DNA of 64,000 nt, taken from Escherichia coli (lineage in GTDB: Bacteria > Pseudomonadota > Gammaproteobacteria > Enterobacterales > Enterobacteriaceae). Both the position numbers and the translations under genes were made by a program. The notes beneath the pieces were generated by a model that was not told where the DNA came from, did not search any database, and saw only the letters and a list, made by a program, of their open reading frames with translations. The stretch lies in NCBI RefSeq assembly GCF_050920415.1, contig NZ_CP169309.1; one strand, 5' to 3'. This document shows positions 7,369-32,445 of the stretch, in pieces. How positions within the stretch are numbered: position 1 is the first letter of the stretch; each line of letters starts with the position of its first letter.

Positions 7369-9129
7369 TTGACCATTACGAAACTTGCATGGCGTGACCT
7401 GGTTCCTGATACCGATAGCTATCAGGAAATATATGCTCAGCCACATTTGATTGACGAAAACGATCCTATATTCAGTGATACTCAACCGCGACTGCAATTT
7501 GCGCTGGAGCAGTTGCTGCATACGCGAGCATCCTCCTCTTTTATGCTGGCGAAGGCCCCGGAAGAGTCTGAGTATCTGAATCTTATTGCCGATGCCGCGC
7601 GTGCGCTACAAAGCGATGCAGGCCAACTGGTGGGCGGTCACTATGAGGTTTCCGGCCACACCATCCGCTTACGTAACGCAGTGAGTGCAGATGATAATTT
7701 TGCGACTTTAACGCAAGTTGTCACTGCCGACTGGGTAGAAGCGGAACAACTCTTTGGCTGCCTGCGCCAGTTTAATGGTGACATTACCCTGCAGCCAGGT
7801 CTGGTGCATCAGGCAAATGGCGGTATTCTCATCATCTCTTTGCGTACACTGCTGGCGCAACCTCTGCTGTGGATGCGGCTGAAAAATATCGTTAACCGCG
7901 AGCGTTTTGACTGGGTTGCGTTTGACGAGTCGCGCCCTCTCCCCGTCTCTGTGCCTTCGATGCCATTGAAGCTGAAAGTCATTCTGGTAGGCGAACGCGA
8001 ATCATTAGCTGATTTCCAGGAGATGGAGCCAGAGCTTGCTGAGCAGGCTATTTATAGCGAATTTGAAGATACTCTGCAGATTGTCGATGCGGAGTCAGTA
8101 AACCAGTGGTGTCGTTGGGTGACATTTACCGCCAGACATAACCACTTACCTGCACCGGGAGCGGATGCCTGGCCGGTACTTATTCGCGAAGCCGCACGCT
8201 ACACCGGTGAACAAGAAACACTGCCGCTTAGCCCGCAGTGGATCCTCCGCCAGTGTAAAGAGGTCGCCTCACTGTGTGATGGCGACACCTTCTCCGGCGA
8301 GCAGCTAAACTTAATGTTACAGCAGCGTGAATGGCGCGAAGGTTTCCTCGCTGAACGCATGCAGGATGAGATCCTTCAGGAGCAAATCCTGATTGAAACC
8401 GAAGGCGAACGCATCGGGCAAATTAACGCCCTTTCGGTCATTGAATTTCCGGGTCATCCGCGCGCTTTTGGCGAACCTTCTCGCATTAGCTGCGTTGTAC
8501 ATATTGGCGATGGTGAATTCACTGACATCGAACGCAAAGCGGAGCTTGGCGGCAATATCCATGCGAAAGGGATGATGATCATGCAGGCGTTCCTGATGTC
8601 GGAACTTCAGCTTGAGCAACAGATCCCCTTCTCAGCATCGCTGACATTTGAGCAGTCATATAGCGAAGTGGATGGCGATAGTGCCTCAATGGCTGAACTC
8701 TGCGCCCTGATAAGCGCCCTCGCCGATGTGCCGGTGAATCAGAGTATTGCTATCACAGGTTCAGTCGATCAATTCGGTCGCGCCCAGCCAGTCGGTGGTT
8801 TAAATGAGAAAATCGAAGGCTTCTTTGCTATTTGCCAGCAACGTGAGTTAACGGGGAAACAAGGTGTCATTATCCCCACTGCTAACGTTCGCCATTTAAG
8901 TCTTCACAGTGAACTGGTGAAAGCAGTAGAGGAAGGCAAATTCACCATCTGGGCAGTAGACGATGTGACTGAAGCACTGCCGTTATTATTAAATCTGGTG
9001 TGGGATGGCGAAGGCCAAACGACGCTGATGCAAACCATCCAGGAACGTATCGCGCAAGCATCGCAACAGGAAGGACGTCACCGTTTTCCATGGCCATTAC
9101 GTTGGCTGAACTGGTTTATTCCGAACTGA
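7369..9129 (+). CDS. ycbZ: Lon-like protease homolog YcbZ
   Basis: 586-aa ORF with TTG start; C-terminal DGDSAS (Ser codon 8680-8682) resembles the Lon catalytic-Ser motif; no GxxxxGK[ST] P-loop seen by eye. Confidence 0.8.
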
Positions 9130-9140
9130 TCGGACTTGTT
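9124..9140 (+). promoter_or_regulatory. FadR operator of the fabA promoter
   Basis: aactgatcggacttgtt fits the FadR consensus ANCTGGTCNGACNTGTT; overlaps the ycbZ stop codon. Confidence 0.7.
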
Positions 9141-9141
9141 C

Positions 9142-9159
9142 AGCGTACACGTGTTAGCT
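9142..9159 (+). promoter_or_regulatory. probable FabR operator of fabA
   Basis: agcgtacacgtgttagct, palindromic around cacgtg, immediately after the FadR site as I recall for fabA. Confidence 0.5.
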
Positions 9160-9197
9160 ATCCTGCGTGCTTCAATAGAATAAGGCTTACAGAGAAC

Positions 9198-9716
9198 ATG
9201 GTAGATAAACGCGAATCCTATACAAAAGAAGACCTTCTTGCCTCTGGTCGCGGTGAACTGTTTGGCGCTAAAGGCCCGCAATTGCCAGCACCGAACATGC
9301 TGATGATGGACCGTGTCGTCAAAATGACCGAAACGGGGGGGAACTTCGACAAAGGGTATGTTGAAGCAGAACTGGATATCAATCCGGATCTGTGGTTCTT
9401 CGGATGCCACTTCATTGGCGATCCGGTTATGCCGGGATGCCTGGGTCTGGACGCAATGTGGCAGCTGGTAGGGTTCTACCTCGGCTGGCTGGGCGGCGAA
9501 GGTAAAGGCCGCGCACTGGGTGTTGGCGAAGTGAAATTCACTGGTCAGGTTCTGCCGACAGCAAAAAAAGTGACCTACCGTATTCACTTTAAACGCATTG
9601 TTAATCGTCGTCTGATTATGGGTCTGGCAGATGGCGAAGTGCTGGTTGATGGTCGTCTGATTTACACCGCCAGCGACCTGAAAGTCGGTCTGTTCCAGGA
9701 TACGTCTGCCTTCTGA
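9198..9716 (+). CDS. fabA: 3-hydroxydecanoyl-ACP dehydratase/isomerase
   Basis: 172-aa [40 protein letters not shown]...; ORF-track 9000 start is an upstream extension. Confidence 0.95.
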
Positions 9717-9743
9717 TTGAAATCAGACAGAGTATAAAAAGGC

Positions 9744-9773
9744 GAAACCTCCGCATTGCGGAGGTTTCTTTTT
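9744..9773. terminator. rho-independent terminator between convergent fabA and rmf
   Basis: stem gaaacctccgcattgcggaggtttc followed by a T-run. Confidence 0.75.
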
Positions 9774-9785
9774 AAAGAGACAGAA

Positions 9786-9953
9786 TCAGGCCATTACTAC
9801 CCTGTCCGCCATGGCTTCTCGCCAGCCTCCCAGCCATTGTGACCTTTGATTCAGCGTCTGATAGGGACACATTTCTTTTGAGCGTCCGGCGATGCCGGCC
9901 TGATAACCACGTTGATGTGCCCGTTCCAGGCGATCTCGTTTTTGTCTCTTCAT
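9786..9953 (-). CDS. rmf: ribosome modulation factor
   Basis: 55-aa MKRQKRDRLERAHQRGYQAGIAGRSKEMCPYQ... found by hand translation on the minus strand; absent from the ORF track because it is short (the 65-aa ORF 9772-9969 is a different frame). Confidence 0.85.
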   Translation of the reverse strand: MKRQKRDRLERAHQRGYQAGIAGRSKEMCPYQTLNQRSQWLGGWREAMADRVVMA

Positions 9954-19743: not shown

Positions 19744-20754
19744 TTAGATATGGTTAACGATTTCTTTAATCAGCGGCGGTCCTTTAAAAATAAAACCAGA
19801 ATAAATTTGCACCAGTGAGGCCCCCGCAGCAATCTTTTCACGCGCAGCGATAACCGAGTCAATGCCGCCAACACCGATGATCGGTAAGCGACCGTTTAAT
19901 TCCTGAGACAAACGGCGAATAATTTCGGTGCTTTTTAACTGTAGCGGACGACCACTTAAGCCCCCAGTTTGATCGCAATTTTTCATACCCTGTACCAAAG
20001 AACGATCGAGCGTGGTATTGGTTGCAATAACGCCATCAATATTATGGCGAACTAAACTATCGGCAACCTGGATCAATTCTTCTTCAGAAAGATCCGGCGC
20101 GATCTTCACTGCGATCGGCACATATTTATGGTGCATCGCTTGCAAATCATTTTGCTTATTTTTAATCGCGGTTAAGAGATCATCCAGCGCTTCGCCATAT
20201 TGCAGTGTGCGTAGTCCTGGGGTATTCGGCGATGAAATATTGATGGCGATATATCCCGCATAAGCATAGATTTTTTCCATACAAATCAGATAGTCATCTT
20301 TACCCTGCTCCACCGGCGTATCTTTATTTTTGCCGATGTTAATACCCAGGACGCCATCATAATGGGCTTTTTTTACGTTCTCTACGAGGTTATCAACGCC
20401 AAGATTATTAAAGCCCATACGGTTGATCAAACCTTCGGCATCTACCAGACGAAAGAGACGCGGCTTGTCATTACCTGGCTGTGGACGTGGCGTGACGGTA
20501 CCGATCTCGATAGATCCAAACCCCATCGCGCCTAACGCGTCAATGCACTCCCCGTCTTTATCAAGACCGGCTGCCAGACCAAGCGGATTTTTAAACGTCA
20601 GGCCCATGCAGTTAACAGGTTTCGCAGGCACTTTCTGCCGCACCAGTGCTTCAAACGGCGTTCCTGTAATACGGCGTAATTGCTGAAAAGTAAACTCATG
20701 AGCGCGCTCTGGATCGAGCTGGAAAAGGGCTTTACGAACGAAGGGGTAGTACAT
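19744..20754 (-). CDS. pyrD: dihydroorotate dehydrogenase (quinone)
   Basis: 336 aa from [21 protein letters not shown]... Confidence 0.95.
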
Positions 20755-20839
20755 GAACTCTCCTGGATTCCCGGTGTGCAAACCGGGGGCGTATTATGTG
20801 CGAGTTCGGACCAAAAGGGAATTGACCTGCGGCAAAAAA

Positions 20840-32248: not shown

Positions 32249-32445
32249 GCCGGATGTGGCGCACAAAACCAGCGGTTTCAACGGATTGTAGGCCTGATAA
32301 GACGCGTCAAGCGTCGCATCAGGCATTTGGGCACGGCTGCCGGATGCGGCGTGAACGCCTTATCCAGCCTACAAAACCAGCATTTTCAACGGACTTGTAG
32401 GCCTGATAAGACGCGTCAAGCGTCGCATCCGGCATTTGGGCTCAA
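32249..32445. repeat. REP/BIME cluster between convergent ssuB and pepN
   Basis: two near-identical ~68-bp units (32265-32332 and 32372-32441) separated by the REP-type sequence gccggatgcggcgtgaacgccttatccagcctac. Confidence 0.85.

Follow-up and report, generated by a model that had tools for sequence, protein, structure and literature searches.

A probable FadR- and FabR-controlled fabA promoter on the last codon and stop codon of ycbZ in Escherichia coli

The ycbZ-fabA locus

The window, i.e. the whole stretch of 64,000 nucleotides of Escherichia coli DNA analysed here (contig NZ_CP169309.1), carries the genes ompA, matP (- strand), ycbZ (+ strand), fabA (+ strand), rmf (- strand) and pqiC/pqiB (- strand), in this order according to the list of its open reading frames. 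The order ompA-matP-ycbZ-fabA-rmf-pqiC is the same in strain K-12, and the homologous positions of a K-12-like RefSeq genome are annotated as ycbZ and fabA. The YcbZ protein is 95.6% identical to that of another E. coli locus in our set (L001; tblastn), and the fabA product is 100% identical to E. coli FabA. The genes and the terminator that delimit the locus are as follows.

7369..9129, + strand: ycbZ, Lon-like 'AAA family ATPase', 586 aa, stop codon TGA at 9127-9129 (list of open reading frames; RefSeq annotation of the K-12-like locus)
9198..9716, + strand: fabA, 3-hydroxydecanoyl-ACP dehydratase/isomerase, 172 aa (list of open reading frames; RefSeq annotation of the K-12-like locus)
9744..9768, both strands: bidirectional intrinsic terminator common to fabA and the convergent rmf (terminator scan; positive control for the scan of 79 loci)

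The stop codon of ycbZ is followed after 68 nt by the ATG of fabA (9198), both genes being on the + strand. On the other side of fabA, rmf lies in convergent orientation at 9786-9953 (- strand). The whole window was scanned against Rfam and for tRNAs; nothing was found at the ycbZ-fabA locus, and an RNA element there was rejected. Above the gathering score, Rfam returned a PyrD leader at 20749-20822 (- strand, 97.9 bits) and naRNA4/CssrE at 32291-32369 (- strand, 82.2 bits).

The FadR and FabR sites and the fabA promoter

A sequence-only reading of this DNA had proposed that a FadR-like site spans the ycbZ stop codon and that a palindromic FabR-like site follows it directly. Both proposals held up: a 17-mer at 9124-9140 contains the TGA at 9127-9129, and, after a single C, an 18-bp palindrome occupies 9142-9159. 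The regulatory elements of fabA considered here are listed below.

8926..8940, + strand: CpxR box of fabA, within ycbZ, GTAGAGGAAGGCAAA (PMC7083825, mapped onto the window)
9124..9140, + strand: predicted FadR activator site AACTGATCGGACTTGTT (sequence match; inside a published EMSA probe)
9136..9164, + strand: candidate core promoter of the FadR-dependent start, -35 TTGTTC (9136-9141), 17-nt spacer, -10 TATCCT (9159-9164), start at about 9171 (from the sequence and a reported footprint)
9142..9159, + strand: predicted FabR repressor palindrome AGCGTACACGTGTTAGCT (sequence match; takes up the spacer between the candidate -35 and -10)

The FadR consensus is a 17-bp imperfect palindrome, aaCTGGTCnGACC(T/A)Gtt (PMC9329746), from which AACTGATCGGACTTGTT differs at two positions. 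The last sense codon of ycbZ, AAC (9124-9126), and its stop codon make up positions 1-6 of the 17-mer. The FabR motif has been quoted as AGCGTACACGTGTTCGCT (PMC4273635) and its core as ACAnnTGTnnnnT (PMC4804515). Judged against the palindrome AGCGTACACGTGTT(A/C)GCT, the segment 9142-9159 fits the quoted motif at 17 of 18 positions and contains the core; it is self-complementary at 14 of 18 positions, and its centre, ACACGTGT, is perfect.

These assignments are supported by published binding experiments. Positions 9115-9170 of the window are base for base the E. coli fabA gel-shift probe fabA_ec-BD-F, on which its authors mark a putative FadR site and a predicted FabR palindrome, and which was shifted by FadR of E. 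coli, of V. cholerae and of Shewanella (PMC4537474). In Salmonella, FabR was located on the fabA promoter in vivo by ChIP-qPCR (PMC4804515), and FabR binding to fabA has been published for E. coli (cited in PMC4804515 and PMC4273635). Activation of fabA by FadR, release of FadR by long-chain acyl-CoA, and repression of fabA by FabR, which is stronger with unsaturated acyl thioesters, have been published as well. These results on binding and transcription were obtained in K-12 or Salmonella, and the 56-bp element is identical in the window strain.

That strain is not a typical one. Over ycbZ-fabA (7369-9716), the window and the K-12-like genome differ at 60 of 2348 nt; none of the differences falls between 8974 and 9177. 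From the ycbZ stop codon to the fabA ATG, the only difference from K-12 is at 9178 (G here, A there), which lies in the fabA 5' UTR, at -20 from the ATG and outside both operators. The 44-mer 9157-9200 occurs exactly in five of 5426 complete E. coli genomes, and at least 99% identity over 8950-9350 is found in four of 5425; the window represents a minority E. coli lineage. This background and the rare 5'-UTR allele might favour the view that the two matches are chance resemblances, or sites that have decayed and lost their function in this strain. However, the probability of this is practically negligible. The 56 bp recur without any change in 5384 of 5425 complete E. coli genomes, and because they hold both sites in a form identical to an experimentally bound probe, the match goes far beyond what chance or decay would leave. 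In addition, the FadR core CTGRTCNGACNTGTT with up to one mismatch matches once in the 64-kb window against 0.13 expected, and the FabR 18-mer with up to three mismatches once against 0.02 expected.

No sigma-70-like promoter was called by a consensus scan of 8600-9900, since the hexamers that we infer here agree with the consensus at only 7 of 12 positions. The missing call is consistent with a weak, activator-dependent promoter and is not counter-evidence to one. The regulation of the fabA promoter in E. coli K-12 is said to have been described by Henry and Cronan in 1991 and 1992, by Zhang, Marrakchi and Rock in 2002, and by Feng and Cronan in 2009 and 2011; the FadR footprint given by Henry and Cronan in 1992 reportedly extends from -47 to -31. 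The FadR 17-mer ends within the best -35 candidate, TTGTTC (9136-9141), and the putative hexamers and the probable start near 9171 agree with this footprint. The general positioning of FadR as an activator has been described (PMC9329746).

More than one start site serves fabA. A FadR-activated start, S1, and a FabR-repressed start, S2, were known from earlier work and were detected again by RACE by Xu et al. 2020 (PMC7083825). The same study reported a CpxR footprint at -287 to -255, with a CpxR box at -272 to -258, and an acid-induced start, S3, at -203 (Nat Commun 11:1496, PMC7083825). On the window, S3 falls at about 8995, within the coding sequence of ycbZ, and the CpxR box, GTAGAagaagGCAAA in K-12, differs by one spacer base (a to g at 8931). 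Like the FadR site, the CpxR-dependent S3 promoter is fabA regulatory DNA embedded in ycbZ, but it lies outside 9124-9159. No detectable drop in synonymous variation marks the CpxR-box region at the family level.

Read-through from ycbZ into fabA

The same reading had seen no terminator between ycbZ and fabA and had predicted that transcription of ycbZ enters the fabA promoter. A scan of the + strand from 8600 to the fabA stop codon likewise finds no terminator, and the first terminator-like site on that strand 3' of ycbZ is the one at 9744-9768. Folding of the RNA from 9080-9200 shows no significant structure (z = -1.29), and on this ground a hidden terminator or attenuator in that segment was rejected. 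Since ycbZ is followed by no intrinsic terminator, read-through into fabA would be expected; the layout of two genes on one strand, with a short gap and no terminator, is that of a co-transcribed pair and is likewise found in the other Enterobacterales loci.

The predicted read-through had in fact been published. Strand-specific RNA-seq of K-12 placed ycbZ and fabA in one operon, which has its primary promoter ahead of ycbZ, an internal promoter, and a secondary one in front of fabA (Conway et al. 2014, mBio 5:e01442-14, PMC4161252). This is exactly the transcription that was predicted, but the overlap of operator and stop codon is absent from the discussion in that paper. According to the same data, the rmf transcript can extend beyond the fabA/rmf terminator and stop inside the ycbZ-fabA operon, where it is antisense to the fabA promoter (PMC4161252).

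A strong terminator-like hairpin after ycbZ was found at only two of 79 loci compared, both from Pasteurellaceae with spacers of 180-231 nt (L079 at about 2320-2343, L058 at about 2277-2309). The restriction of such hairpins to these two loci makes the compact junction without a terminator the rule in Enterobacterales. The hairpin of Haemophilus seminalis, AAAAGCGAACATTTGTTCGCTTTT, is also a FabR-like palindrome. Hairpins noticed by eye in the spacers of Haemophilus and Budvicia were unconfirmed by the terminator scan.

Taken with the binding data, these observations leave little doubt that 9124-9164 is a canonical FadR-activated and FabR-repressed fabA promoter-operator, set on the last codon and stop codon of ycbZ and reached by read-through from that gene; nothing contradicting this was found. 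A FadR dimer on the 17-bp site at 9124-9140, adjoining and overlapping the weak -35, would activate transcription, and long-chain acyl-CoA would free FadR so that fabA expression drops. FabR on the palindrome at 9142-9159, between -35 and -10, would repress, its binding being tightened by unsaturated acyl thioesters. Meanwhile, RNA polymerase from the ycbZ promoters would run on into fabA, and the FadR/FabR promoter would act as the secondary, fabA-proximal promoter of the operon.

The ycbZ stop codon and the FadR site across families

Eighty loci, one genome per species, were retrieved by FabA, and 79 of them, including the window, contain the end of ycbZ; genera were assigned to families from general taxonomic knowledge. 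Sites were compared by direct alignments; anchoring on the FabR palindrome fails in a few loci with a second FabR-like 18-mer. Two Providencia loci (L037 and L051) carry such an 18-mer, AACGTACACTTGTTAGCT (16 of 18 positions), inside ycbZ about 110 nt before the stop codon, and it may be there by chance. ycbZ and fabA remain neighbours throughout Enterobacterales, and they are adjacent in Pasteurellaceae and Vibrio too. The position of the ycbZ stop codon relative to the FadR site differs between groups in the following way.

46 of 79 loci (27/27 Enterobacteriaceae including the window, 10/10 Yersiniaceae, 3/3 Hafniaceae, 2/2 Budviciaceae, 2 Erwiniaceae, 1 unplaced Enterobacterales MAG, Vibrio penaeicida): positions 4-6 of the FadR site are the TGA stop, and the site is well conserved (core at least 14/15)
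2 Haemophilus: TGA at the same position, weaker FadR site
9/9 Morganellaceae: ycbZ stop 11-23 nt upstream; FadR site intact (13-15/15), lying wholly between the genes and still with TGATC
8 Erwiniaceae (Erwinia, Pantoea, Tatumella, Rosenbergiella): stop is TAA at practically the same place, left FadR half-site lost
5 Pectobacteriaceae: ycbZ stop 20 nt upstream, FadR site degenerate
2 Vibrio: TAG directly adjoins the site, FadR site present

A stop codon within the operator is thus seen in no fewer than five families of Enterobacterales, in one Vibrio and in two Haemophilus. Among the 27 Enterobacteriaceae, the FadR 17-mer is identical at 17/17 positions in 25 and at 16/17 in the other two. In the Morganellaceae (L037, L051, L052, L059, L062, L066, L067, L068, L070), ycbZ stops earlier and is 4-5 codons shorter, and all nine retain a FadR site of the form TGATCGGA(C/G)TTGT. 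In the Erwiniaceae with TAA (L032, L038, L040, L050, L053, L055, L057, L065; around 2425-2450 of each locus), the left FadR half-site has been lost as a unit, seven of the eight have a T at the end of the last codon, and the FabR palindrome is mostly kept, least in L032 and L050. This pattern suggests that FadR control of fabA may have been lost in Erwiniaceae. In the fabA probe of Shewanella oneidensis (...AAT TAG CTGATCGGAGTTGTT...; PMC4537474), a TAG directly adjoins the FadR site, a layout resembling that of the two Vibrio loci.

It had further been claimed that regulatory function constrains the 3' end of ycbZ. The claim stands for the last codon and the stop codon, about 6 nt, and fails for the 3' end in general. 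The comparison that had been suggested, of the last ycbZ codons with the FadR site across Enterobacteriaceae, bears out the first part: AAC is invariant in all 27, with zero entropy at its three positions, and codons -4 to -2 are highly variable, reaching 1.9 bits (entropies are uncorrected for phylogenetic relatedness, here and below). It is exactly at position 1 of the FadR site, rather than at the stop codon, that conservation sets in. In the last 400 codons of ycbZ, only 4 of 334 usable columns lack synonymous third-position variation, and the final codon is one of them. On the other hand, the mean third-position entropy of the last 29 codons is 0.98 bit, compared with 0.87-1.33 in other stretches of the gene; a windowed analysis of synonymous-site entropy led us to reject any broader synonymous constraint at the family level, save for the last codon. 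Because the last 29 codons stay within the normal range of the gene, the constraint amounts to about 6 nt, i.e. one wobble base and the choice of TGA. The coding constraint is therefore real but tiny, being confined to one codon and the choice of stop.

The invariant codon could in principle reflect selection on the protein for a terminal Asn of YcbZ and owe nothing to the FadR operator. The C-terminal motif of YcbZ is conserved as protein across Enterobacterales, so that the tail matters to some degree, and Asn is the final residue in all 27 Enterobacteriaceae. However, residues -2 to -4 vary freely, and other families have Gly, Ser or His at the end of the protein, although C is kept as the wobble base in all 46 embedded loci and in the two Haemophilus loci with the weaker site. 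The last sense codon of the 46 is AAC in 30, GGC in 12 and AGC in 4, and its final C is always position 3 of the FadR site. Selection on the protein is unable to fix AAC over AAT, and a complete lack of synonymous variation is, as seen above, rare in ycbZ. Furthermore, YcbZ of Morganellaceae lacks the last 4-5 residues, yet the DNA site is kept. Taken together, these points make selection on the protein very improbable as the cause of the invariance, in comparison with the operator.

The promoter of E. coli fabB offers a further comparison. It is built as the same tandem, with a FabR palindrome directly after a FadR site (CTGATCGGACTTGTTC-GGCGTACAAGTGTACGCT), and its probe reads CTGATCGGACTTGTTC...GCGTACA.GTGT..GCT, as at fabA. 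Judging from the probe sequence, however, the FadR site of fabB lies outside any upstream stop codon, unlike that of fabA. Since the fabB module serves no stop codon, the TGA in CTGATC is indicated to be a feature of the operator and not a coding requirement. The module without a stop codon at fabB and the noncoding TGATC kept by Morganellaceae together argue that the operator dictates the sequence and that ycbZ borrows its TGA. The loss of the left half-site as a unit in the eight Erwiniaceae with TAA points the same way. The operator is then the primary constraint, and ycbZ uses the TGA within CTGATC as its stop.

The position of two DNA-binding proteins' sites directly at the last codon and stop codon of ycbZ, in a gene that lacks its own intrinsic terminator and with a junction geometry conserved across several families, also invites the idea that bound FadR and/or FabR acts as a roadblock. 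Such a roadblock would set the 3' end of the ycbZ mRNA, and read-through would track the levels of acyl-CoA or unsaturated acyl-ACP, as a second regulatory layer atop promoter control. We regard this as unlikely. Polymerase does get through, as RNA-seq calls a ycbZ-fabA operon (PMC4161252); the decayed sites of Erwiniaceae and Pectobacteriaceae come without a replacement terminator; and a roadblock adds nothing that the data require beyond the canonical promoter-operator. It is likewise unlikely that the stop codon in the operator is an ancient, selectively maintained junction at which FadR and FabR gate both polymerase coming from ycbZ and initiation at fabA. If true, such gating would tie the Lon-like YcbZ to unsaturated fatty-acid synthesis as a single lipid-responsive unit, and it would explain why the adjacency of ycbZ and fabA has survived from Vibrionaceae to Escherichia.

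Much of what is described here is already published, namely the sites and the proteins that bind them, the several starts of fabA, the regulatory DNA in ycbZ and the ycbZ-fabA operon. No paper naming ycbZ and FadR together was found in the searchable open-access literature; therefore, the remark that the stop codon lies in the operator, and its phylogenetic pattern, may be unwritten. The overlap and its pattern are a small corollary and not a discovery, and the comparative pattern of the ycbZ stop codon against the FadR site is the addition of the present analysis. The promoter itself is a textbook case of dual control, with a ligand-released activator and an adjacent repressor, and the value of the result lies mainly in annotation. 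There is also a practical side: the FadR site begins with the final codon of ycbZ, and the CpxR box and S3 are located 200-290 nt within that gene, so that any deletion or tag at its C-terminus will harm the promoter of fabA, an essential gene. The last codon of ycbZ and its choice of stop provide a clean, small case in which a synonymous position is held fixed by a regulatory site, and the sequence of states across families, with the site kept, the stop moved or the site lost, is a compact record of the turnover of the FadR regulon in Enterobacterales.
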